Positions 1-15,355 of a stretch of DNA of 32,000 nucleotides are shown piece by piece. Position 1 is the first letter of the stretch. Each line of letters starts with the position of its first letter. The stretch is taken from contig CP075337.1 in the NCBI GenBank assembly GCA_025349965.1, positions 570,001 through 602,000 on the forward strand. The letters run 5' to 3'. Below the pieces are notes generated by a model that saw nothing but the letters and a program-made list of their open reading frames with translations, was not told the origin of the DNA and made no database searches. The stretch is from Candidatus Saccharimonadota bacterium (GTDB taxonomy: Bacteria > Patescibacteriota > Saccharimonadia > Saccharimonadales > Saccharimonadaceae). Position numbers and translations under genes: made by a program.

Positions 1-1475
1 AGCCGGTCACTCAGCTCTTTTACGCTCTCGCCCTGTTGGAAGTACTGCTTCAAATCAGTATCATCAGAAGCCGCCCATGGACGATATGCGTTTGGATACG
101 TTTCGCGCATCTTCGCAATCTTATCAGACCAGCTAGATCCACCCTCGGTTTTCTTCTTTGGGGTAAGTCCCTTTTTCGCATCTTCAGCACGCTTCTCAGC
201 CAGCTCCATTAAATGCGCAAACTGCTCTCGAGCCTCGGCAACTCTCTGCTGCAAATGCGCATCAATCGCCTGCGCCTCATCGCTCACCTTCAGTGCCATT
301 TGGTTAATCCCCGCCAAGTAAAGTGTCTCAAGACTGCGCACACGGCTCAACGCCACATACCCCATTCCCTCAACAAACGCCTTGCGCAAGTCAACCCGCG
401 CCGCGTCAAGCGTCATTCCCTGAGATTTATGCACGGTAATTGCCCATGCCAAACGAAGTGGAATCTGTGTAATTGAAGCACGTTTTTTATCGCCATCACG
501 AAGCTCCCATGTATCCGGCTGCATCGTCACCTCTTTGCCATTTCTAAACTGCACAATTGGGTACTCGGTTGCCGGGTCAAAATCTACCACCACACCGATA
601 CTTCCATTGGCATATTTACGATCAATACTATTCTTCACCGCCATCACCAAAGCGCCTTCCTTAAGACGCAATACCTCAGGCGCCAAAACGGATCGTTGCA
701 AATTCTCAACATAGTTCTGCGCACCAGTCGTCACTTGATGGTAGGATAATTCATCACCCTCAACCTCAGCCAAACGCCGCTCGTTAATCGTATCAACGTC
801 GATATTTACTGTATGGAGTTCCGTCAACTGCGACGGGTCATCTGGCTCAACCTCCGCTCGCTCCAAGAGTTTCTCTGCATGATGGCGACGGATATCCCCC
901 GCCCGCAGTGCATTCAAAATCTCAAGCAAATGCTCATCTTCCTGACGATACTGCTCTTCAAGGTAACAGATTGTTGGGTTGAGCTCATTCCAAACTCGTG
1001 ATGACACCACAAACTGCCCAGCCTGCACATTTGAGCCACGTGTTACCGGAGGAAGCTGGAAAAAGTCACCAGACATAATAATTTGAATGCCGCCAAACGG
1101 AGTGTCTGGCTGCTTTCGGACCACGCGACACACTTCATCCACCATATCTAAACGGTAGCCATGCAACATACTAATCTCATCAATAATCAGCACGTCGGTC
1201 TTCTCAATAATCTCTCGACGCCCCTTCGCCATATGTTCGGCAAAGTTGCCCGGCAAAAAGTCATGAATGCCAATCCCAGACCAGGCGTGAATGGTTGTGC
1301 CGCCAAGATGCGTTGCCGCAAGCCCCGTGGTTGCCGTTACGGAAACATGCTTGCCATCAGCCTTGGCATACTTAATAAACTGATTCAGTACATAGGTCTT
1401 CCCCGACCCCGCTGGACCAGTCAGCAGTACACTTTCCCCCGAAAGCATTATCTCTAACGCAAGCTTTTGATTCAT
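1..1475 (-). CDS. PIF1/RecD-like SF1B DNA helicase (3' end runs off the left window edge)
   Basis: Absent from the ORF track because no stop lies inside the window. My own translation of the minus strand from ATG 1475-1473 stays open to position 1 (at least 491 aa): MNQKLALEIMLSGESVLLTGPAGSGKTYVLNQF... Motifs seen: Walker A GPAGSGKT, Walker B LIIDEISM, Pif1-family signature PFGGIQIIMSGDFFQLPPV, and VHKSQGMT. The C-terminal part (...RPWAASDDTDLKQYFQQGESVKELSDRL) looks like the HTH-type tail of bacterial Pif1-like helicases. A TGTATACT -10-like element lies 8 nt upstream of the ATG. Confidence 0.85.
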   Translation of the reverse strand, partial: MNQKLALEIMLSGESVLLTGPAGSGKTYVLNQFIKYAKADGKHVSVTATTGLAATHLGGTTIHAWSGIGIHDFLPGNFAEHMAKGRREIIEKTDVLIIDEISMLHGYRLDMVDEVCRVVRKQPDTPFGGIQIIMSGDFFQLPPVTRGSNVQAGQFVVSSRVWNELNPTICYLEEQYRQEDEHLLEILNALRAGDIRRHHAEKLLERAEVEPDDPSQLTELHTVNIDVDTINERRLAEVEGDELSYHQVTTGAQNYVENLQRSVLAPEVLRLKEGALVMAVKNSIDRKYANGSIGVVVDFDPATEYPIVQFRNGKEVTMQPDTWELRDGDKKRASITQIPLRLAWAITVHKSQGMTLDAARVDLRKAFVEGMGYVALSRVRSLETLYLAGINQMALKVSDEAQAIDAHLQQRVAEAREQFAHLMELAEKRAEDAKKGLTPKKKTEGGSSWSDKIAKMRETYPNAYRPWAASDDTDLKQYFQQGESVKELSDR

Positions 1476-1508
1476 CTCTTCTTAGTATACATCACCCAGA
1501 TGCAATAC

Positions 1509-2672
1509 TTATCCGCGCGGCGGCTCGCCCTCTGGTTCATCAAGTGGCTTTTTGCTCTTGATTTCATAGCGTTTGCCAGTAATTTCACTCGTAATATAAT
1601 CTTCATTAATAAGATTCACAAACATATCGAGATCATTGCCGTCCATGATGATAATCGCACCCTCGTCATCCGTCATAAGGTCAAGCTGCATCGTGTCAGC
1701 GTATTCGATCGCCTGCTCTTGAGTGACACTGCCAATCTCAAGTTTTTGTAGCTTATTTACAATCTTCTTTTTCTCCATCACCAATGACTGCAGGTTCGCG
1801 CCCTCGGCAAAACTGAGCTTGTACTGTTTTTCAATTTCCGCCACCTTCTTATCCGCAAGAAGCTGCTTCTTATATTCATAGTTAAAAATACGCTCAAACT
1901 TACTTTGGCTAAAGATGAAGATGTCTTTATCAATAATCAACACTTGGTTATCTGCAGGCACCTTCCAACCAAATTCAGGCGTAAAAGCACGGAATGAACC
2001 TTCGTTAAATTCCCATGAAGTCGCACCCTGCAAAGCAGAACTTCCGCTCACCTGCTTCACGACAAAGAATTCCCCAGAACCATCTCGTTTCGTAAAGCGC
2101 GCTACAATTCCCTTAATGCGCTTAAACTCGTGCTCTTGTTCACTGAACTCAACGATATCGTGGCGTTCATGCTTAATAAGATGTATGAGCGTCTCAGCCC
2201 GCCCCACCTTCTCAAGATCAGTGCGAAGCAATGTGTCTGGTCCCTTTTCAGAAAGCTCATAATCACGCACGGAAAGCCCCGTACCTGCGCCGAGATTCAC
2301 GTCATTAATGAGGTCAAACAGGAAAAGCGCCTTGATTTGCGTATCAAGCGCATCATCAATACGAATACTATACGGCGTGTAGTTACGGTTAAAGAGGAAG
2401 AACTCAGCGCGAAGCTCATTCTTCACTGCATCCGTTTGGTTTGCCCACTGGAAGATATCAACTCCGTCACCCGCATCTGCCTTTATTTCAGACTTCAAAT
2501 CATCAGACTTTTCAATTACCTCTGACGGGGCGTTGGCTGCGGTCGTCTCCACAACCACTTCATCATCAGCATCAACCACATCGGTCATGTCGGTTTTTTC
2601 AATAATTTCTTGGTTTTCTTCAATCTCTTCAATAACGTCAGTCGTTTCAGGCGCGTCCTGCATGATACCCAT
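1509..2672 (-). CDS. DUF4868/KwaB-like protein with poly-acidic N-terminal extension (tentative family assignment)
   Basis: 387-aa ORF. The first ~75 aa are low-complexity acidic: 24 D/E, 4 K and 0 R by my count. The remainder (FFLFNRNYTPYSIRIDD, FFVVKQVSGSS, VLIIDKDIFIFSQSKFERIFNYEY, MFVNLINEDYITSEITGKRYEI) recalls the DUF4868 family (Pfam PF16162, KwaB of Kiwa) from memory only. The coding call is solid. The family call needs an HMM search. Confidence 0.45.
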   Translation of the reverse strand: MGIMQDAPETTDVIEEIEENQEIIEKTDMTDVVDADDEVVVETTAANAPSEVIEKSDDLKSEIKADAGDGVDIFQWANQTDAVKNELRAEFFLFNRNYTPYSIRIDDALDTQIKALFLFDLINDVNLGAGTGLSVRDYELSEKGPDTLLRTDLEKVGRAETLIHLIKHERHDIVEFSEQEHEFKRIKGIVARFTKRDGSGEFFVVKQVSGSSALQGATSWEFNEGSFRAFTPEFGWKVPADNQVLIIDKDIFIFSQSKFERIFNYEYKKQLLADKKVAEIEKQYKLSFAEGANLQSLVMEKKKIVNKLQKLEIGSVTQEQAIEYADTMQLDLMTDDEGAIIIMDGNDLDMFVNLINEDYITSEITGKRYEIKSKKPLDEPEGEPPRG

Positions 2673-2691
2673 ATCCTATTTCTTTATTTTT

Positions 2692-2723
2692 ATATAAAAC
2701 AACAGCCTTTATTGTAGGCTGTT
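2692..2723 (-). terminator. rho-independent terminator after the 212-aa orphan gene
   Basis: Perfect 8-bp stem aacagcct / aggctgtt (2701-2708 and 2716-2723) with a 7-nt loop, followed on the minus strand by GTTTTATATA. Confidence 0.7.
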
Positions 2724-2736
2724 ACCCGCAGACAGG

Positions 2737-3375
2737 TCAATACGCGCCGTCAAATGAACCGAACGACCGGGCCATCCGTGCTTCGTTGTTCGCCCCATTC
2801 ACATACGCAACGATCTCGGCAATATCCTTATTGAATAGTTCAACGTCATACTCCGTCATCTCGCGGCAAAGCATCGATCCCTCATCGCCACCATCAAGTG
2901 TCACGTCATTCATCTGAATCGTTGCATGCACCACGCCGCCCTTATACCACTCAAATTCGTAGATCGCAAAAAATGAGTGCTTTGTATTTGGGAGCGTACG
3001 ATGAACAGCAAGGAAATACTCTTCCTCTTTCGGACCCTCTCTGTAGACATGATGCCGCGCAACGATTGACTTTTGTGACATTCTAGAGGCTAAATACTGC
3101 CAGTATGTTATCTCGCCCGTTGCAACATCTGCAGCGATGTAGTCACCTTCACTTATCTCTACCTCGTCAGCCTCAACACTCAACTCTCGCTCAAGAAAAT
3201 CACTATTGGTGCTCACACTAAGCGTTGCACCTTCAGTACGGTCAATACGCTCAAACAAGTCCTCAAGCGAATAACTCGCATCAATAAAGACACCCGCTCG
3301 TCGCTCGTGCGAAAGTGGTGCATACTCGGAGCGTAATTTCATACCATCTCCACCGTAATGCACCGCTTTTTCCAT
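2737..3375 (-). CDS. hypothetical protein (no recognisable domain)
   Basis: 212-aa ORF with no TM segment and no motif I recognise. The first ATG (3375) lies 6 nt after the rnhA stop. An alternative ATG at 3342 is preceded by GGAGA with 4-nt spacing. A terminator hairpin follows at 2701-2723. Confidence 0.7.
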   Translation of the reverse strand: MEKAVHYGGDGMKLRSEYAPLSHERRAGVFIDASYSLEDLFERIDRTEGATLSVSTNSDFLERELSVEADEVEISEGDYIAADVATGEITYWQYLASRMSQKSIVARHHVYREGPKEEEYFLAVHRTLPNTKHSFFAIYEFEWYKGGVVHATIQMNDVTLDGGDEGSMLCREMTEYDVELFNKDIAEIVAYVNGANNEARMARSFGSFDGAY

Positions 3376-3381
3376 TACCGT

Positions 3382-3801
3382 CTACAGCCTCACGCCTTCG
3401 CGCGCTTTATTCGCCCATACATCAGCGAGTTCATTACCCTCATCGCCTTCATGACCACGCACCCACACAAGGGTTGCATTTGCATTCTGATGAAGCGCAT
3501 ACGCCTCCTGGACGATGTCAAGATTCTTAATCTCTCCGCCCTTCTTCTTCCAGCCCTTCGCTTCCCAGCCCGGTGCCCATTTTGTAATCACATTGATCCA
3601 AAACTCGCTGTCGGTAAAAATTTCAGCATGTTCATCGCCCGCATCTTTCATGGCGGCAACGAGCGCCTTCCCTTCCATGCGAATGTTGGTTGTTTCGCCC
3701 TCTTCGCTCCCCAAGATGTGAGGAACACCATTTTTAATCACTGCGAATCCACCCGGACCAGGGTTAGGACTTGCACTCCCATCTGTGTAGTAAACAATCA
3801 T
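3382..3801 (-). CDS. rnhA: ribonuclease HI
   Basis: 139 aa. MIVYYTDGSASPNPGPGGFAVI... carries the DEDD-type RNase H core (YTDGS, ..NIRMEGKAL.., TDSEF, HEGDEGNELAD). TAGACT -10-like box 6 nt before the ATG. Confidence 0.9.
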   Translation of the reverse strand: MIVYYTDGSASPNPGPGGFAVIKNGVPHILGSEEGETTNIRMEGKALVAAMKDAGDEHAEIFTDSEFWINVITKWAPGWEAKGWKKKGGEIKNLDIVQEAYALHQNANATLVWVRGHEGDEGNELADVWANKAREGVRL

Positions 3802-5658: not shown

Positions 5659-7023
5659 TTATCCAAGAAGTTCCGCAATAGAAACGCGTCGCTGTTCCGT
5701 TGTATCGCGCTCGCGCACCGTAACAGTTCCACCGCCTTCAATCGTCTCAAAATCAATCACAACAACGTGGGGCGTTCCAATTTCATCCTGGCGGCGGTAA
5801 CGCTTACCGATATTCCCGTTATCATCCCAGGAAACATTGCCATACTTTTGCTTCAATGCTCGGTATACTTCACGGGCTTTTTCAACAAGCTCTGGTTTAT
5901 TCTTAAGAAGTGGTGAAACTGCATAACGGACTGGCGCAAGATGCTCTGGAAGCGCAAGATAGATACGCTTCTCGCCATTCACTTCATCTTCACGGTACGC
6001 ATTCGAAAGTACCGCCATAAGCGCGCGCTCAACACCAAAAGACGGCTCAATCACGTGTGGCACAAACTTTTCATTCGTCCCCTTTACGGTGTATTCCATA
6101 CTCTTACTACTAACGCGTTGGATGTTGCCAAGGTCAAAATCAGTCCGATACGCAATACCCATCAGCTCTTCCTTGCCAATTGGGAAATCGTATTCAATAT
6201 CAATAGTCTTTTTACTATAGTGCGCGCGGTCAGCTTCCGGCACATCAAGCTCATGAATATGTTCCGGCTTTAGCCCAAGACGCACTAGGAATTCATGTGT
6301 ACTCGCAAGCAATTCCTCGAAGGCTTCTTCCCACTTTTCTGGATGTACAAAGTATTCAATCTCCATCTGTTCAAATTCACGTGAACGGAAGATGAAATCA
6401 CGAGGAGAAATTTCATTACGAAAGGCCTTCCCTTGCTGGGCAATACCAAATGGAAGATCAGGGTAAAAACTGTCCACCACATTCTTAAAGTTCGTAAAGA
6501 TACCTTGAGCAGTTTCTGGGCGAAGATAGCTGATTGACGCATCGTCACTGGTTGGACCAACATGCGTTGTGAACATCATATTAAACGTGCGCGAAGCAGA
6601 CAGCGGATTGCCATCTGGGCTTTTAATGCCATGTTCGGCAATAGCGGCGTCCATTTGCTCCATTGTCATGCCCTCGGCGTCAACACCATTGTCCTTGAGG
6701 ATGTGATCAGTACGGAAGCGTCGGTGATTGACCGTATCTTCACAAAGCGGGTCAACAAACGTGTCAACATGACCGCTCGCCTGCCAAACTTTCTGATTCA
6801 TAAGAATCGCCGCATCAACGCCATACATGTCATCACGGCCATCAACGAAGTGCTGCCACCACAGGTTCATAATATTACGCTTCAACGCCACACCAAGTGG
6901 ACCATAATCCCAAGTTCCACGAAGGCCGCCATACACGTCTGACCCGGGGTAAATAAACCCGCGCCGTTTAGCCAAACTAATAATATCTTCCATATTCACA
7001 CTACTACTCATAATTATGACCAT
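5659..7023 (-). CDS. glyQS: glycine--tRNA ligase (homodimeric class II type)
   Basis: 454 aa. MEDIISLAKRRGFIYPGSDVYGGLRGTWDYGPLG... is a typical GlyQS N-terminus. The first ATG (7023) sits inside a TGtTATAAT element (7022-7030), so the true start is more likely ATG 7011 or ATG 6993. Confidence 0.93.
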   Translation of the reverse strand: MVIIMSSSVNMEDIISLAKRRGFIYPGSDVYGGLRGTWDYGPLGVALKRNIMNLWWQHFVDGRDDMYGVDAAILMNQKVWQASGHVDTFVDPLCEDTVNHRRFRTDHILKDNGVDAEGMTMEQMDAAIAEHGIKSPDGNPLSASRTFNMMFTTHVGPTSDDASISYLRPETAQGIFTNFKNVVDSFYPDLPFGIAQQGKAFRNEISPRDFIFRSREFEQMEIEYFVHPEKWEEAFEELLASTHEFLVRLGLKPEHIHELDVPEADRAHYSKKTIDIEYDFPIGKEELMGIAYRTDFDLGNIQRVSSKSMEYTVKGTNEKFVPHVIEPSFGVERALMAVLSNAYREDEVNGEKRIYLALPEHLAPVRYAVSPLLKNKPELVEKAREVYRALKQKYGNVSWDDNGNIGKRYRRQDEIGTPHVVVIDFETIEGGGTVTVRERDTTEQRRVSIAELLG

Positions 7024-7062
7024 TATAACAGATTGAAGGGTAATTTTGGAGTACAGAGCAAA

Positions 7063-7091
7063 TTGACTTTTCGTCTGTTTTGTGCTATAAT
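7063..7091 (+). promoter_or_regulatory. consensus sigma70-type promoter of the GC-rich orphan gene
   Basis: TTGACT (7063-7068), 17-nt spacer, TATAAT (7086-7091) with an upstream TG (7083-7084). A perfect 8-bp hairpin in the 5' UTR follows at 7123-7142 (tgtctttc-agcc-gaaagaca). Confidence 0.7.
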
Positions 7092-7173
7092 TGAGTCATC
7101 CATTTGTTTGACTTGTAGTGCTTGTCTTTCAGCCGAAAGACATTCCCTTCTCTACCTAAGATTGGAGCAAGAA

Positions 7174-7689
7174 ATGGACGAACCTACCAAAACATCGACT
7201 CCCGCTTCAGCAGAAGCGGAGACGATCGATCTGCTGCTTGAATTGTGCAACGAAGGTATCGATGCACTTCTCACACGGCACAATGTCGCAACGGCGCGGC
7301 AGCGGCTCGGCGAGCTTGACGAAATCATCAGCAAGCTGGCGACAGAGCGCTGGGATGGAACCTCTCTGCTTCACCTCGAGCTTTTCCAGGCTCGCAGGAA
7401 GATGCTCAACGGAATTCTCGCGCTTCGCTACGACGACGATGCAAGCAGGGCTGTCGAGCTCCATCGCGCAGTCGACTTCAGCTACAGCACCCACGGTGTG
7501 AATGAGGCAGACTGGCGGCGCGTACAGAACCGCTACCACTGGCTTCGCGCCATGGCAGCGAACGACACGGGCATCGAAAAGCGGAAGATCGTCAACCACG
7601 ACTTCGAAGCCCTTCGTCCGATCGAGCGTTTCCACGCTTGGGCGCTGACGTACTTCGGTCGAGCATACTACATGCTCATCATGTCCTAG
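7174..7689 (+). CDS. hypothetical protein, GC-rich orphan (171 aa from the ATG with an RBS)
   Basis: The maximal ORF starts at TTG 7033. ATG 7174 is preceded by GGAG (7164-7167) with a 6-nt spacer, lies downstream of a consensus promoter (7063-7091), and is followed by a terminator (7750-7783). The predicted protein looks helical and carries no motif I recognise. Confidence 0.7.
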   Translation: MDEPTKTSTPASAEAETIDLLLELCNEGIDALLTRHNVATARQRLGELDEIISKLATERWDGTSLLHLELFQARRKMLNGILALRYDDDASRAVELHRAVDFSYSTHGVNEADWRRVQNRYHWLRAMAANDTGIEKRKIVNHDFEALRPIERFHAWALTYFGRAYYMLIMS

Positions 7690-7749
7690 CTACTGTCTAA
7701 CGTAGCAAAGACACCACTGGAAGCTCCCCCATTTGGCGAGCCGCAACCT

Positions 7750-7783
7750 GGGACCCCTGCGTTAATGGGTCCCTTTTTCTTTT
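7750..7783. terminator. rho-independent terminator between the convergent orphan gene and recO
   Basis: gggaccc (7750-7756), 10-nt loop, gggtccc (7767-7773), then TTTTTCTTTTC on the plus strand. Confidence 0.75.
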
Positions 7784-8470
7784 CTAGATTATTTGTTCAA
7801 CCGCAGCATGCTGTTCCGCTACCTGCGCGCACGCGCCAATCACCTCACCAATACCGCCAACCTGTACAAGCACTTTCAATGAGCGCGTACTCAAGAGCCG
7901 CAGTAGCTTGATATGATCACTCGCCAGCTCACCCTGCTCTACCATACGCAACCCCTTCTCAGATACATCATAGCGATACTGTGCGTCAGGAGATAATACG
8001 TCACCTCCAATGTCACGATTAACGTTCAGTTCATAGCCAAGGAGCGCGCTATAGTGAAGGTAGAACCACGCACGAATAAGCGCGAGAGGAACTGTTTTAA
8101 TATCAAGTGCCGCCAAAATCTCAGCCAGTAGATCAAACCACTCTGGCTCATCCACCGTCTCGCTCGCTCGTGCCACCAAGGCAATAGCTTGATAGCCAAA
8201 CTGGAGACGGTCGTACTCTTCTAGAATATGACGATAAAAATGAACAAGCTTTGCGGACGTAAGAATCCCTAGCTCACCCCTTCCTTCGCCGAGCACGACA
8301 TCACTCACCGCAAAAAGCTCAATCCCTCCGGCCAGTTTACTCTTCTCTTTGCGAACTCCGCGCGCCATCACTGCGCGTCGTCCCTCTGGAGTTATCAACT
8401 GTAAAATTCTATCCGCTTCACCGTAATTGGTGCGCCGAAGTACTATTGCCCTGGTGCGCTGTGTTTTCAT
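7784..8470 (-). CDS. recO: DNA repair protein RecO
   Basis: 228 aa. MKTQRTRAIVLRRTNYGEADRILQLITPEGRRAVMARGVRKEKSKL... is a canonical RecO OB-fold N-terminus. Its start overlaps the upstream stop as ATGA. Confidence 0.9.
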   Translation of the reverse strand: MKTQRTRAIVLRRTNYGEADRILQLITPEGRRAVMARGVRKEKSKLAGGIELFAVSDVVLGEGRGELGILTSAKLVHFYRHILEEYDRLQFGYQAIALVARASETVDEPEWFDLLAEILAALDIKTVPLALIRAWFYLHYSALLGYELNVNRDIGGDVLSPDAQYRYDVSEKGLRMVEQGELASDHIKLLRLLSTRSLKVLVQVGGIGEVIGACAQVAEQHAAVEQII

Positions 8471-10757: not shown

Positions 10758-11854
10758 GCCGCTCCTTTGTCTTTCGCGCTCGTTATTTCTGCTTCAATAT
10801 ACTTCGTACTGGTCTCAATTTGTATTCGCTCACCCACTTCAGTTTTGCCACGCAGGATCGCATAGCCCTGCCGAAGCACCGCCGCCGGGTTCACTTGTTC
10901 AATTGCGAGCTTGAGTGCGCCAAGCTGACTCGTTGTCCGCTCAAGCTCATGCTCTATACTTCGATACGCATGGCGAAGCGCCTCCCTATTTCGAGCCACT
11001 GCCTCGTCAACGCGTTGCATCATCGTAGCCCCAAGATGCACCACGCGCTGCCGGACATCACGAATCATTTCTTGTTTATCTGGTACGACAATCTTAGCGG
11101 CATCAGTAGGTGTTGCGGCACGTACATCCGCCACCATATCAGCAAGTGTATGATCAATCTCATGCCCCACGCCAACCAGTGTTGGAATACGGCTCGCCGC
11201 TACCGCCCGTGCAAGCAGTTCATCATTAAAGGCCATCAAATCTTCAGCCGCACCACCTCCACGAATAATCACCAGCACTTCGGGCAGGTCTTCCAGTTCA
11301 TTCATGTAGTTAATAGCGCGAATCATTTGGTCTGCCGCCGGGTCGCCCTGCACCTGTGTATGTGCCACGGTTACCTTAAGTCCACCCCAACGTTGATTTA
11401 AAATAGTGCAAAAATCCGCATACGCCGCAGATTCAGTGCTTGTAATCACCCCGATATGTGCCGGTGTCCGCGGCAAGAGGCGCTTTCGCTCTGGCGCAAA
11501 CAATCCCTCTTTTTCTAGCTTTTCCTTTAGTAGCTCAAAACCCTTCTTGATAGACCCTTCACCTACAGGCTTTACTACACGAATATTCAGGTTAAAATAC
11601 CCCTTTGGGTTAAGCCGAGGATTTGCTTGCACCATCACCTTCATGCCATCCTCAAGTGGAATGCGCAGTTGATATACCGACATAAAACAGTTCACCACCG
11701 CGCCAGCATCCTTTAGCTTAAAGCTTACCCACTTTCCCTGGCTCACCTTAAACTCAGCTACCTCACCCACCACTGTCACAACCGGGTAGGCGTACTCAAG
11801 CGACTGGTTGACCAGCGCAACAAAATCACTAACGCTTAACTGTATGTTTTCCAT
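10754..11854 (-). CDS. xseA: exodeoxyribonuclease VII large subunit
   Basis: 366 aa. N-terminal OB fold (SVSDFVALVNQSLEYAYPVVTVVGEVAEFK) and a catalytic region (IGVITSTESAAYADF, IIRGGGAAEDL). Confidence 0.9.
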   Translation of the reverse strand: MENIQLSVSDFVALVNQSLEYAYPVVTVVGEVAEFKVSQGKWVSFKLKDAGAVVNCFMSVYQLRIPLEDGMKVMVQANPRLNPKGYFNLNIRVVKPVGEGSIKKGFELLKEKLEKEGLFAPERKRLLPRTPAHIGVITSTESAAYADFCTILNQRWGGLKVTVAHTQVQGDPAADQMIRAINYMNELEDLPEVLVIIRGGGAAEDLMAFNDELLARAVAASRIPTLVGVGHEIDHTLADMVADVRAATPTDAAKIVVPDKQEMIRDVRQRVVHLGATMMQRVDEAVARNREALRHAYRSIEHELERTTSQLGALKLAIEQVNPAAVLRQGYAILRGKTEVGERIQIETSTKYIEAEITSAKDKGAA

Positions 11855-12875
11855 GCGTTGAAAGAGTTAGCTGGTAGAAGAAATAGCCAAAGACAATTGT
11901 TCCGGCAAGGAGCGTAACACGTGCTAGCAATGTTCCCGCAATCGCCACATCCGGTGTCACACCGCTCGCTGCAAGGAACATAACCATGACTGTTTCGTAC
12001 ACACCGGCACCACCAGGAGTTACAGAGATTGCACTTAGGATAGACGCCACGCCAAAAGCGATAAAGAGCAGTGCTGGATCAAGCGGGAAGCCAAGCGCCC
12101 AAAATGCAATCCAGATCAACGCAACGTCAAGAATATTCGCAATCAATGCCCAGATAAATGGTATGATCAAAATCTTCCTATCCTTCTGAAGTCCGACGTA
12201 ATCATCGTGCAGCCCTTCGAAGAAGTGAACAATTATTTTAGACTTTACGAGGTTTTTCTTCTTACCCGCAGTAAAGAAGCTGATAATACCGTTCACTTTG
12301 CGCGTAAGCCACTTTGAAAAACGTGTTAAACGAGGCCGGCTCCGCACCATCCATATCACTAAAAGTGTCGCACCTACCGCAAGTATCGTTAGTGTAATCG
12401 CAATAAATACCATGGTCTTGTCAGCTTGATGGTTTAGCCCAAGCACTAAAAGTGCAACAAGCAGCAACACTACAAAACTAATAAAGGTTAGCGTAAACCG
12501 AAGAATTTGCGCCATAGTTGAGCGTGCCGGTGACACCCCATAGCGGTTGAGTACCCACGCAAGATACGAAAAGCCCGCCGCTCCCCCACTTGGTAAGATG
12601 TGGTTCACGAAATTAAGCTCGAGCGCCAAACGAGTCGTGCCCCAGTGCGACATCTGCTTAATCTCTCCTTTAGCGCGAAGATACGAGAAAATCATACCAC
12701 CGGTTGCGTAGTAGCTAAAGAATTGCACCGGAATGAGGAGCGCCAGGATCCATAGATCCACTCTCCCCATAAGCCCCCACGCCTTCTGAATTTCAGGCCA
12801 CGCAGCAAAGATAACCACTGTTAAGAGTACGAGTGTAACGAGAGTAAGCCAGCCGCGAAAGGAAAGTTTCTTCAT
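11829..12875 (-). CDS. integral membrane protein, lysyl-phosphatidylglycerol-synthase-TM/flippase-like (UPF0104) family
   Basis: 348 aa, about 8 TM helices. The overall pattern resembles PF03706-type proteins. The family call is from memory. It overlaps the xseA start by 26 nt. Confidence 0.6.
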   Translation of the reverse strand: MKKLSFRGWLTLVTLVLLTVVIFAAWPEIQKAWGLMGRVDLWILALLIPVQFFSYYATGGMIFSYLRAKGEIKQMSHWGTTRLALELNFVNHILPSGGAAGFSYLAWVLNRYGVSPARSTMAQILRFTLTFISFVVLLLVALLVLGLNHQADKTMVFIAITLTILAVGATLLVIWMVRSRPRLTRFSKWLTRKVNGIISFFTAGKKKNLVKSKIIVHFFEGLHDDYVGLQKDRKILIIPFIWALIANILDVALIWIAFWALGFPLDPALLFIAFGVASILSAISVTPGGAGVYETVMVMFLAASGVTPDVAIAGTLLARVTLLAGTIVFGYFFYQLTLSTHGKHTVKR

Positions 12876-12911: not shown

Positions 12912-14045
12912 TTAATTTAAGAGACAGCGAACCCCAAGCCCGTAGTACCGGAAGTAACCATAAGCCGGGTCGACGTTACTAACATTAAAGTACGCGTAAT
13001 GGGCAAAATTGGCACCAGAGGCATGAGCAGACCTAGACCACAAGAGGCCGTTACTGGACTGGGAGTTAAAGGAGCCGCCGTACCAGAGCCCAGAAAGCAC
13101 CCCCTTAAAAGGGCCGGCGAACTGCCAGTTTTGGTAGAAGCCAGTACCGCCAGAGATAGAGCCGGCCGTAGCACTAGGGTTGTTCATCTTAGCGTTAAGC
13201 ATGGCGAATTCACCAACACCACCCGTACCGCTGGTTGGTAGTCGCCAGTTAACAGGGCAAATTGAATATGGAGTATCCCCGCTGCCGGCCGGTTTGGTCG
13301 TGCGGGTTTCCCCGGCCGTAGCAGCCGACCAGTTGTATAGATAGCCATAGTTAGCAGAACCAGAACCAGTGTCACCTGGGACTGGTCCGTAAGCATATGG
13401 CGTATCGTAGTTGTTGCCAGGGTTGGTTGTTATATCCCAGATAAGACCAGCGCTCTTTACTTGTGGCAGAGTGAAGTTACTAGCTACATTACTATCTGCC
13501 GGAGTAAGTGTAATCGCACCTGTAGTTGAGCCGAGCCTGAGGTTAGTTATCATCCAGCAGTTGTTATCCGCCAGCTTAGCCACTTCGTAGGTTTGAGTTA
13601 CACCTCCGCGACTATCGGTAAGTGTTTTGATTGCTGCTGGGTTAGAGCCGGTGTAGATATCTGCAGCAGCGCAATGAGCTGAAGTAAATTGCTGCATAGT
13701 GGTAGCGACCGGAAGTGCACAACTACCCTCTTGAATTGAACCCACCTCAGTAATACGAAAATCTTTACCATTGGCAGTTCCAAACACACAAAAAGCATTT
13801 CCACCACTCGAATAAGTCAAACCAGCTGGAATAAAATCAGGACTAACTGGAAAAGTACCATCGCCATTTATTTTTGCGATTTGAAGTTTTTTGGCAGTGG
13901 TAGATAAATCGCTTTTTAGAGCAGACGTCTCCGCATCATTAGTAATGCCATTATATGCAACAATCGTAATCGCAGCCAAAATAGCAATCACTACAACAAC
14001 AATCAATAATTCTACTATTGTGAAGCCTTGTTTTGTTGTTTTCAT
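12912..14045 (-). CDS. type IV pilin-like protein fused to a FISUMP (Fibrobacter succinogenes major paralogous) domain
   Basis: 377 aa. Prepilin signal MKTTKQG|FTIVELLIVVVVIAILAAITIVAYNG (Gly-1, Phe+1, Glu+5). The C-terminal half carries FISUMP hallmarks: TYEVAKLADNNCWMITNL, YGYLYNWSAA, ICPVNWRLPTSG, EFAML, LWSRS, GLGVRCLL. GGGGG Shine-Dalgarno 4 nt before the ATG. Confidence 0.85.
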   Translation of the reverse strand: MKTTKQGFTIVELLIVVVVIAILAAITIVAYNGITNDAETSALKSDLSTTAKKLQIAKINGDGTFPVSPDFIPAGLTYSSGGNAFCVFGTANGKDFRITEVGSIQEGSCALPVATTMQQFTSAHCAAADIYTGSNPAAIKTLTDSRGGVTQTYEVAKLADNNCWMITNLRLGSTTGAITLTPADSNVASNFTLPQVKSAGLIWDITTNPGNNYDTPYAYGPVPGDTGSGSANYGYLYNWSAATAGETRTTKPAGSGDTPYSICPVNWRLPTSGTGGVGEFAMLNAKMNNPSATAGSISGGTGFYQNWQFAGPFKGVLSGLWYGGSFNSQSSNGLLWSRSAHASGANFAHYAYFNVSNVDPAYGYFRYYGLGVRCLLN

Positions 14046-14088
14046 ACTACCCCCTAGCTGCTTGTCGGTTTACACCGTCTTTGCCTAG

Positions 14089-14097
14089 ATTATAGCA
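14089..14097 (-). promoter_or_regulatory. extended -10 TGCTATAAT of the pilin-FISUMP gene
   Basis: Plus strand attatagca. A roughly 35-nt leader ends in the GGGGG Shine-Dalgarno (14050-14054). Confidence 0.6.
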
Positions 14098-14125
14098 TAG
14101 GCAGTAAAGCGGATATTCCACCCCA

Positions 14126-14134
14126 TGATATACT
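14126..14134 (+). promoter_or_regulatory. extended -10 TGaTATACT, 6 nt before the methyltransferase start
   Basis: TG at 14126-14127, TATACT at 14129-14134, ATG at 14141. Confidence 0.55.
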
Positions 14135-14140
14135 CAATAT

Positions 14141-15355
14141 ATGTATATTGCCCTTTTAGGCCGCCAGCCAGAACTCTCAATCGCCGAGCTTGAGCGTGTA
14201 TTCTTAAATACTCGCTGGTTCTCGTCACAGGCGGCATTGTTTGACTCACCAACCCCGCCAAATATTCAACGCCTCGGCGGGAGCCAAAAACTTGGGCGTG
14301 TCATTGCTACCGTGCAGAGCGCCGACTGGAAACAGGCAGAAAAGAAGCTCATCACGCATTATAAAAAGGCGTGGGCAAAGCACGATGGTAAGATCACCCT
14401 CGGTCTCAGCGCCTACGGCTTCACTGGGACTCCAAACGCCCGTGATCTTCAAAAAACTGGCCTCATTATTAAATCTTCGTTAAAAAAGAGTGGCGTGAGT
14501 CTGCGTCTCATCCCAAATCAAGAAGTTGCACTCAGTACCGCAACCTCTCACCACAACAAGCTCGGCCTCACAAACAATAAGGTTGAACTCCTTATTGTTA
14601 AAGGCAAGGGAACAATCATCATTGCCGAGAGTCTCGGTGCGCAAAACATCACCGCCCTCGCCGCGCGCGATCAAGGTCGCCCAAAGCGCGACGCCTTCGT
14701 TGGCATGCTTCCACCAAAACTAGCACAAATGCTTATCAACATAGCAGCCGGCAGCAAAGAAACCGAGCCAACGCTCCACAGTGGCAACGGCCTGCAAATC
14801 CTCGACCCCTTCTGCGGCACCGGCGTCCTTCTTCAAGAAGCCTCACTGCTTGGCTACGACGCATACGGTACTGACCTTGCGGATAAAATGATCTCTTACA
14901 CAGAGGCTAACCTCGATTGGCTCGAAAAAACACACCACACCACCACGGCTCGTCACATTCACCAGGGTGATGCCATGGATACTGTGTGGGATTTCTCAAA
15001 ACCAACCGCCATCGCCGCTGAAGGCTACCTCGGCCAACCTTTCAGCGCCCCACCAAGCCCAACAAAACTTAAAGAAGTTCAGGGAAACTGCAACCATATT
15101 ATTGGCAACTTCCTTAAAAACCTCAGCGCGCAAGTGCCCACCGGAACTCCCGTCGCCCTTGCCGTCCCTGCATGGCGCAGCAAAGATCTATCGCCCTACG
15201 GCAACCAAATGTTCACTCACCTTCCACTCGTCGATGAACCAGAACGTTACGGCTTCACGCGAATCGAACTCACCAACGCCACACCAGAGCAACTCCTCTA
15301 CTTCCGTCCAGATCAAGTAGTTGCACGCGAGATACTCCTTCTTCGCAAGGCGTAG
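14141..15355 (+). CDS. SAM-dependent methyltransferase (UPF0020/Trm11-like architecture)
   Basis: 404 aa. Roughly 200-aa N-terminal domain, then motif I ILDPFCGTGVLLQEA, acidic motif II YGTDL, and IHQGDAMD. The position expected for (D/N)PPY reads AAEGYLGQPF. Confidence 0.7.
   Translation: MYIALLGRQPELSIAELERVFLNTRWFSSQAALFDSPTPPNIQRLGGSQKLGRVIATVQSADWKQAEKKLITHYKKAWAKHDGKITLGLSAYGFTGTPNARDLQKTGLIIKSSLKKSGVSLRLIPNQEVALSTATSHHNKLGLTNNKVELLIVKGKGTIIIAESLGAQNITALAARDQGRPKRDAFVGMLPPKLAQMLINIAAGSKETEPTLHSGNGLQILDPFCGTGVLLQEASLLGYDAYGTDLADKMISYTEANLDWLEKTHHTTTARHIHQGDAMDTVWDFSKPTAIAAEGYLGQPFSAPPSPTKLKEVQGNCNHIIGNFLKNLSAQVPTGTPVALAVPAWRSKDLSPYGNQMFTHLPLVDEPERYGFTRIELTNATPEQLLYFRPDQVVAREILLLRKA

Follow-up and report, generated by a model that had tools for sequence, protein, structure and literature searches.

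The 32-kb window analysed here (32,000 nucleotides of a Candidatus Saccharimonadota bacterium, contig CP075337.1, positions 570,001 to 602,000) encodes on its minus strand, at 1509-2672, a protein of 387 amino acids that we call KwaBL, for KwaB-like. KwaBL has the KwaB (DUF4868) fold and is independent of KwaA, and its gene is a single backbone gene of Saccharibacteria (TM7), vertically inherited and under purifying selection. Kiwa, the system to which KwaB belongs, is among the most abundant defence systems. KwaBL and the KwaB of Kiwa are distinct paralogues that fall into distinct clades, and what is new is a KwaA-less clade of KwaB proteins with a genomic lifestyle unlike that of Kiwa. Judging from homologues and gene context, we see about an even chance that KwaBL is a cytoplasmic accessory factor that would bind DNA ends or junctions in recombination-dependent replication or repair, often together with a helicase.

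The preliminary description of this stretch, made from its letters and open reading frames (ORFs), had likened the 387-residue protein to DUF4868/KwaB, and profile searches bear this out. PF16162 matches the protein with 43.7 bits (gathering score 26.3, E = 4e-11) over profile positions 4-186 of 186, and the PADLOC models of KwaB align over nearly their full length, residues 84-379 of the protein corresponding to model positions 17-316 of 320, with a best score of 1.2e-10. A profile of the KwaBL family compared with the PDB matched the KwaB chains 9o0i and 9mrx at ~1e-8 with both domains covered. The homology thus spans the Rossmann-like N-terminal domain and DUF4868, and the 'DIFxWAN' start and C-terminal 'Y..K' motifs are common to KwaB and KwaBL. 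The structural comparison that the preliminary description had suggested also led to KwaB. With close homologues only, AlphaFold (AF2) gave an unusable model with a predicted local distance difference test score (pLDDT) of 51; the model used here, obtained with the N-terminal tail trimmed and distant relatives in the alignment, has a pLDDT of 88 and a predicted TM-score (pTM) of 0.74. When this model was searched against the PDB with Foldseek, the matches were KwaB only (9nyu, 9mrx and 9mtn, E ~1e-12, probability 1.00), the next match having E = 0.42. Over the full length, the model superimposes on the KwaB structures with a TM-score of ~0.45 and a root-mean-square deviation of ~13 Å, so the two domains are set in a different relative pose. 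KwaBL is 13-15% identical to solved KwaB (9mrx, 9mtn, 9nyu, 9o0i) and, unlike it, bears an additional acidic N-terminal tail. Since it scores 37.8 bits against the NCBIfam KwaB equivalog NF041623, far under the cutoff of 200, we regard it as a homologue of KwaB and not an orthologue.

As the preliminary description had stated, and in contrast to Kiwa, KwaBL has no KwaA partner in the window. This was judged by direct sequence and transmembrane searches; Pfam negatives were not used, as the copy searched held no PF28043. Two true KwaA queries run with phmmer against the 125 window ORFs of at least 60 amino acids returned nothing even at E = 10, and no multi-transmembrane ORF of KwaA size (~180-200 amino acids, four transmembrane helices) was found in the window. 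Its multi-transmembrane ORFs are EamA, FtsX and ORF 11829-12875, which by length and position corresponds to the LPG_synthase_TM gene of a 99.3%-identical strain. Over 205 loci, tblastn found KwaA in L203, L138 and L139 only, all three expected to have it, with L203 as the positive control. An ORF of 212 amino acids upstream of KwaBL was considered as a substitute for KwaA and ruled out: it has no predicted transmembrane segment and is not conserved.

The KwaA-linked KwaBs group together, apart from KwaBL, in a neighbour-joining tree (98.5% bootstrap support). The deep nodes that bear on the direction between phage and chromosomal origin have less than 50% support. Canonical Kiwa is reached from KwaBL at ~24% identity, in P0205, which has an overlapping KwaA upstream and lies beside an HNH nuclease and a methylase. 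The two kinds of protein meet in L203, a Saccharibacteria chromosome fragment that carries a full KwaA+KwaB pair (6463-7942) in the variable slot that directly follows GlyRS, close to a gene for a zeta toxin, and a resident KwaBL at 13199-14278, ~5 kb beyond the Kiwa pair. The KwaAs of L203 and L138 share 35% identity (E = 2e-35). The L203 KwaBL shares 66% identity with the deep-clade protein P0131, 42% with the window protein and 32% with the KwaB with which it resides. Because both coexist in this fragment, the jobs of KwaBL and KwaB presumably differ. As a side observation, the L203 KwaB (P0146) is the Kiwa-type protein nearest the KwaBL clade, at 31-35% identity. The published survey of Kiwa took in only loci with both KwaA and KwaB (PMC11785009), and our full-text literature search on DUF4868 returned no paper describing a KwaA-less copy.

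Kiwa loci show heavy horizontal transfer, ~53% of them being associated with mobile elements (PMC11785009); Kiwa is mobile and patchy, whereas KwaBL is a core gene passed on vertically. Identity to the window protein is 70-89% for the best 120 homologues, of which the named ones come from Candidatus Saccharibacteria/Saccharimonadota metagenome-assembled genomes with contigs of 0.7-0.9 Mb. With each GTDB species represented by one genome, at least 565 species genomes were found to have a relative. In our synteny sample (the 80 best loci plus others, ~80 species), the order RecO, GlyRS, RNase HI, KwaBL, Pif1 on one strand is nearly universal, with the cell-division (dcw) cluster downstream, and throughout the class collinearity extends from ExoVII by way of RecO, GlyRS and RNase HI as far as MraZ. 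The median identity to the window is 71% for KwaBL, 72% for Pif1, 74% for GlyRS and 68% for RecO, and the divergence of KwaBL correlates with Pif1 divergence (r = 0.89, n=88) and with RecO divergence (r = 0.89, n=60). The identity and divergence of KwaBL therefore track those of its housekeeping neighbours, which argues for vertical inheritance and not for an island. The preliminary description had suggested checking whether the block is island-like and variable between close strains. An island-like cluster could not be upheld, since the strain L206, 99.3% identical to the window over 13.4 kb, has an identical gene order, and the commonest genes inserted between the backbone genes are pilin-like, SAM synthetase, prephenate dehydratase/dehydrogenase, YaaA and CYTH genes, with defence genes absent among them. 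The same description had also named a core gene with unrelated neighbours elsewhere as an outcome that would speak against its proposal; the first part of this holds, but the second does not, Pif1 being largely kept. A decaying prophage remnant was ruled out as an origin for KwaBL by its ~70% identity across genera and by the 104 invariant columns of its body among 33 homologues at 69-91% identity.

Four loci with KwaBL at 68-79% identity (L015, L027, L047 and L080) are labelled as other taxa, namely Parcubacteria, Chloroflexi, Verrucomicrobiia and Taylorbacteria. Three of the four also have Saccharibacteria-type Pif1 and/or RNase HI neighbours, and all four are probably mis-binned or mislabelled.

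The features around KwaBL in the window are given below; for the four minus-strand ORFs, the coordinates of the preliminary description were exact.

3382-3801, minus strand: RNase HI (PF00075, E 8.7e-31, 107.4 bits)
2737-3375, minus strand: ORF of 212 amino acids, an acidic soluble orphan without a family match
2740-2711, minus strand: promoter-like site (TTGACC, 18 nt, TACAAT), overlapping the hairpin at 2701-2723
2701-2723, minus strand: terminator-like hairpin, 8-bp stem and U-rich tail, between the 212-residue ORF and KwaBL
1509-2672, minus strand: KwaBL, 387 amino acids (PF16162 and KwaB fold)
2463-2672, minus strand: acidic N-terminal tail of KwaBL, residues 1-70 (alignment, pLDDT and charge statistics)
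1512-1544, minus strand: C-terminal tail of KwaBL, ...LDEPEGEPPRG, residues 377-387 (alignment of 33 homologues)
1476-1508, minus strand: spacer of 33 nt between KwaBL and the helicase (terminator scan)
1-1475, minus strand: Pif1-family superfamily 1B (SF1B) helicase, first 491 of 513 amino acids, cut by the window edge (PF05970)

The hairpin noted earlier at 2701-2723 is real and is followed by a U-run; folding of the stretch gave -16 kcal/mol and z = -2.0. No terminator was detected in the spacer at 1476-1508, which makes co-transcription of KwaBL and the helicase plausible. The last 22 residues of the helicase are taken to lie outside the window because its full length is 513 amino acids in the 99.3%-identical L206. 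Downstream of the helicase in L206, CofD/YvcK follows after 4 nt and then the mraZ-mraW-PBP-mraY-ftsW division cluster.

The gene after KwaBL had been called a PIF1-type helicase, and this is confirmed by a match to PF05970 (6e-36, 124.6 bits) and by the Walker A (GPAGSGKT) and Walker B (DEIS) motifs in the translation; the Pif1 2B domain, PF21530, scores 23.7 bits, just under its cutoff of 23.9. The protein is a standard member of the bacterial Pif1/RecD2-type SF1B helicases. To our knowledge, such helicases have not been described with a dedicated DUF4868 partner; in the loci studied here, the DUF4868 pairing is frequent but not obligate. The helicase starts 33 nt downstream of KwaBL, and this adjacency, to which the preliminary description had drawn attention, recurs in related genomes. 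Among the 78 Saccharibacteria loci with both genes, 28 have a gap of at most 150 nt, another 28 one of 150-1000 nt and 21 one that exceeds 1 kb, and Pif1 is found within 1 kb of KwaBL in 56. In L085 and in Southlakia epibionticum the order of the two is swapped, yet they are still adjacent (in Southlakia, SEML1_0262 RNase HI, SEML1_0263, SEML1_0264 helicase, SEML1_0265 DUF4868). On the mobile element L087, Pif1 lies 2 nt after KwaBL and is followed by a HerA-like ATPase; this Pif1 is 46-58% identical to the chromosomal Pif1s of Saccharibacteria. The interval between KwaBL and Pif1 often contains genes on the opposite strand. We conclude that the association of KwaBL with Pif1 is frequent and probably meaningful, without being obligate.

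The adjacency could reflect synteny only, with KwaBL a DNA- or nucleotide-binding protein whose role is unrelated to its neighbours, for example in nucleoid organisation or in regulation near the division cluster. The collinearity of the stretch from ExoVII to MraZ across the class speaks for such an explanation, and so do the unrelated, sometimes opposite-strand genes that often separate KwaBL from Pif1, the existence of one clade that has KwaBL with no Pif1 nearby, and the terminator-like hairpin that parts KwaBL from the genes upstream. We nevertheless consider it unlikely, as the pair survives a local swap of gene order, recurs 2 nt apart on the unrelated L087 with a Pif1 close to the chromosomal ones, and is echoed in L202, where a different helicase, of superfamily 2 (ResIII), comes after KwaBL. 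What is more, the consistent context of KwaBL in phage recombination modules, described below, points to DNA transactions.

From IMG/VR, Logan and JGI contigs we collected 51 loci of phages or mobile elements in which KwaBL has 30-50% identity; the terminase and integrase genes present on such contigs confirm their phage nature. In 37 of the 51, a same-strand gene for a single-strand annealase (RecT, ERF or Sak4) lies no more than 5 kb upstream. Of the remaining 14, eight have short upstream flanks and six have adequate ones; among these six, Pfam reveals a divergent RecT upstream in L099 and L130, and in L091 RecT is found only ~5 kb downstream. The modules are of several types: RecT with YqaJ; ERF with an RNase_T-type exonuclease; RecT with a PD-(D/E)XK::FtsK/HerA fusion; and a PD-(D/E)XK exonuclease with Sak4, an exonuclease-like protein and SSB. 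Irrespective of the annealase family, KwaBL directly follows the module, 1-3 kb past the annealase. An exonuclease and, in many modules, SSB accompany the annealase, and in some loci a helicase gene comes after KwaBL. The closest non-chromosomal relatives of KwaBL are thus fixed same-strand neighbours of RecT/YqaJ, Sak4/SSB and ERF/exonuclease modules. By comparison, the window has no annealase or phage gene with its KwaBL, and the DNA-metabolism neighbours there are Pif1 and RNase HI, plus RecO ~5 kb away. The searched literature gave no role for a DUF4868 protein in phage recombination modules.

The PD-(D/E)XK nuclease fused to an FtsK/HerA-type ATPase occurs at L099:2281-4134, L130:6882-8918 and L204:4686-6773, next to a divergent RecT or a RecT-sized ORF, and looks like a single-polypeptide machine for end resection. 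In the contigs L092-L135 (IMG/VR, ~30 kb) the annealase is swapped, RecT in some and Sak4 with an exonuclease-like gene in others, and across these swaps the PD-(D/E)XK exonuclease, SSB and KwaBL are retained. These contigs may belong to phages of Saccharibacteria, given a GC content of ~0.46-0.48 that resembles that of Saccharibacteria.

Searches of GenBank phage isolates and PLSDB plasmids with tblastn found no KwaBL relative, and the non-chromosomal clade is therefore confined to uncultivated elements. With P0136 as the sole query, IMG/VR gave no match; BFVD returned two unnamed phage proteins with no functional label. PADLOC, run on the mobile-element partners of KwaBL, found generic helicase and HerA domain matches only.

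In lambda-Red-like phage modules, accessory end-protection genes (gam) sit beside the exonuclease and annealase genes. The position of KwaBL directly after exonuclease, annealase and SSB genes in phages raises the question of whether it is a phage-derived, Gam-like end protector or anti-nuclease whose chromosomal copy was domesticated, which would be a sub-case of the accessory-factor explanation. The Kiwa report describes binding of Gam, a DNA mimic, to KwaB, which suggests a DNA-end-like site (PMC11785009). However, neither Foldseek nor BFVD revealed sequence or fold similarity of KwaBL to Gam or Ku, and the Southlakia annotation lists no RecBCD or AddAB to guard against. We think this special case very unlikely.

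Experimental data exist for an orthologue of KwaBL and for its helicase neighbour. In transposon sequencing (Tn-seq) of S. epibionticum ML1, SEML1_0265 (DUF4868) and SEML1_0264 (helicase) were non-essential at three time points (Wang et al. 2023, PMC10633639 Table S1), with flat reads of 2590, 2504 and 2503 for the former and 6838, 6753 and 6657 for the latter. The Southlakia RNase HI, RecA, RecG and RecF were classed as 'growth defect' at the last time point only (PMC10633639). The KwaBL orthologue is dispensable in laboratory co-culture.

These results bear on the proposal, put forward in the preliminary description, of a non-canonical defence or nucleic-acid surveillance cluster. Part of it stands, in that KwaBL is a KwaB homologue, KwaA is absent and Pif1 recurs beside it; the variable island and the four-gene unit do not. 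In its present form the proposal is one of constitutive, KwaA-independent defence or surveillance, with KwaBL binding invading DNA and Pif1 (perhaps with RNase HI) replacing KwaA as the sensor or partner. The sole characterised relatives of KwaBL are anti-phage effectors (PMC11785009), KwaBL and Pif1 are non-essential in phage-free co-culture, and the slot between GlyRS and KwaBL can carry defence genes, such as Kiwa and the zeta toxin in L203. In PADLOC, the helicase also has partial matches among the helicases that belong to candidate defence systems; these matches are generic and align the ATPase domain to parts of much longer proteins. Defence is further opposed by vertical inheritance at housekeeping rates with no island behaviour, by the coexistence in L203 of KwaBL and a full Kiwa, a sign that KwaBL has another job, by a whole clade and a majority of phage copies in which KwaBL has no Pif1 next to it, and by the location of the phage copies within recombination modules and not in moron-like accessory slots. 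Overall, a defence function seems to us improbable.

The reading that we prefer is that of an accessory factor in DNA transactions. Saccharibacteria are naturally competent, and several canonical repair helicases and nucleases are missing from them. KwaBL would form a KwaB-like dimer that binds single-stranded and double-stranded DNA without sequence specificity. It would do so in the cytoplasm, on DNA ends or junctions of single- and double-stranded DNA, unlike a KwaB that KwaA anchors at the membrane, where it traps invading DNA. The processes served might be recombination-dependent replication, repair or the handling of transforming DNA, in which KwaBL could cooperate with the neighbouring 5'-3' Pif1/RecD2-like helicase. 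For KwaB it has been reported that dimers bind single-stranded and double-stranded DNA non-specifically via DUF4868, show no nuclease activity and stall replication (PMC11785009). By analogy, KwaBL probably shares this non-specific DNA binding. We mapped the KwaB DNA-contact set (N134, R142, R167, D169, K187, R233) onto KwaBL by hidden Markov model (HMM) alignment, in which all positions given here are assigned at low identity. In this alignment R167 corresponds to K237 of KwaBL, which is at least 90% conserved, K187 lies beside the invariant K258, R233/K234 lie beside the invariant K307, and D169 corresponds to P239. Basic residues are thus found at or beside three of the four basic contact positions and, as KwaB itself binds through DUF4868, DNA binding by KwaBL is plausible.

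Several observations weigh against this accessory-factor reading. At the protein level, the body of KwaBL is acidic (isoelectric point 5.0) and gives no sign of DNA binding, and the contact residue R142 of KwaB corresponds, in the same low-identity alignment, to Q215. As for the helicase, no Pif1 was found within 10 kb of KwaBL in L054 and L062, and in a whole clade at 50-55% identity KwaBL has no Pif1 within 8 kb; examples of the gene order in this clade are RelA, RNase HI, CYTH, KwaBL, MraW on the one hand and FtsX, CHAP, S41 peptidase, KwaBL, TatD on the other. Nearly all phage copies of KwaBL also lack Pif1, the pair being present on a single mobile element, L087, and the high collinearity of the region makes adjacency within the class weak evidence when taken alone. 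The clade and the phage copies likewise speak against the suggestion in the preliminary description that Pif1 takes the place of KwaA. Genes that follow recombination modules in phages can also be anti-defence or exclusion genes, and a role in defence would account just as well for genes being non-essential in culture without phages. Finally, we infer the function of KwaBL from its context and from a homologue at 13-15% identity.

Two terminal extensions distinguish KwaBL. The N-terminal tail is predicted to be disordered (pLDDT ~30). Over 33 homologues its length ranges from 1 to 92 amino acids with a median of 59 (70 in the window protein), and its net charge, -19 in the window protein, has a median of -14. 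Most of the aligned distant full-length relatives, several of them in phage or mobile-element contexts, lack this tail. We speculate that it could act as an intramolecular DNA mimic. At the other end of the protein, columns E381-G387 are invariant over the 33 homologues, which differ by up to 31% elsewhere. The tail EPEGEPPRG is confined to the Saccharibacteria clade of the window and is lost in the deeper clades and in the phage copies; it may, again speculatively, be a partner-docking peptide.

A KwaA-less clade that is fixed in an entire class of epibionts with reduced genomes and is found in phage modules suggests that the effector fold had a pre-defence or parallel role, and it bears on the origin of the Kiwa effector and on how KwaB stalls replication. 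The ML1 annotation of Southlakia lists RecA, RecJ, RecG and RecF but not RecB, AddA or RecQ (PMC10633639). A broader hypothesis, which we hold to be possible though doubtful, is that DUF4868/KwaB-fold proteins primarily form a hitherto unrecognised class of accessory factors of recombination or replication, that the Kiwa effector is a membrane-tethered exaptation of such a protein, and that Saccharibacteria fixed one beside Pif1 to compensate for missing RecBCD/AddAB/RecQ. Under this broader hypothesis, the family would bind ends or forks, would sometimes be partnered by a helicase, and would be common to Saccharibacteria and their phages. KwaBL is a conserved gene of Saccharibacteria that its context marks as one of DNA metabolism, and transposon mutants of the KwaBL and Pif1 genes exist in the genetically tractable Southlakia. 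For annotation, a lone 'KwaB-like' label in genomes of the candidate phyla radiation (CPR) should not be counted as a defence system.

The two genes upstream of KwaBL had been grouped with it and the helicase into a four-gene unit, which the comparison of related genomes does not support. The rnhA assignment itself is correct (PF00075, as listed above), with 99.5 bits against the NCBIfam equivalog (cutoff 160). RNase HI is the next backbone gene upstream of KwaBL and lies at a variable distance from it in related genomes; this variable distance and order, and its being a class-wide housekeeping gene, ruled it out as a component of a system. The 212-residue ORF has no match in Pfam, PADLOC or NCBIfam, and the nucleic-acid role attributed to it is not borne out. 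Only 5 of the 83 related loci contain weak homologues of it (28-40% identity), and 5.8 billion proteins yielded just three relatives, a distribution that marks it as a lineage-restricted accessory insert. We infer that both genes are neighbours of KwaBL and not components of a system with it.

Scans of the 32-kb window for tRNA genes and Rfam families found neither. GC skew is negative throughout positions 1-32000, and nearly all long ORFs are on the minus strand. The sole opposite-strand ORF of the first 10 kb, at 7033-7689 (plus strand), lies in a gap of ~760 bp between GlyRS and RecO. The gap is missing from L001; in L206 the same gap holds, at 5687-6202 on the minus strand, a called gene of 171 amino acids without a Pfam match. 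GlyRS itself (5659-7023 in the window) shows a bimodal identity among its syntenic copies, ~47-56% as opposed to 68-93%, an observation that involves L046, L052, L055, L058, L060, L070, L072 and other loci. This identity is poorly correlated with that of RecO, Pif1 and KwaBL (r ~0.3), and the pattern suggests that in some lineages glyS was replaced in situ by a divergent copy.

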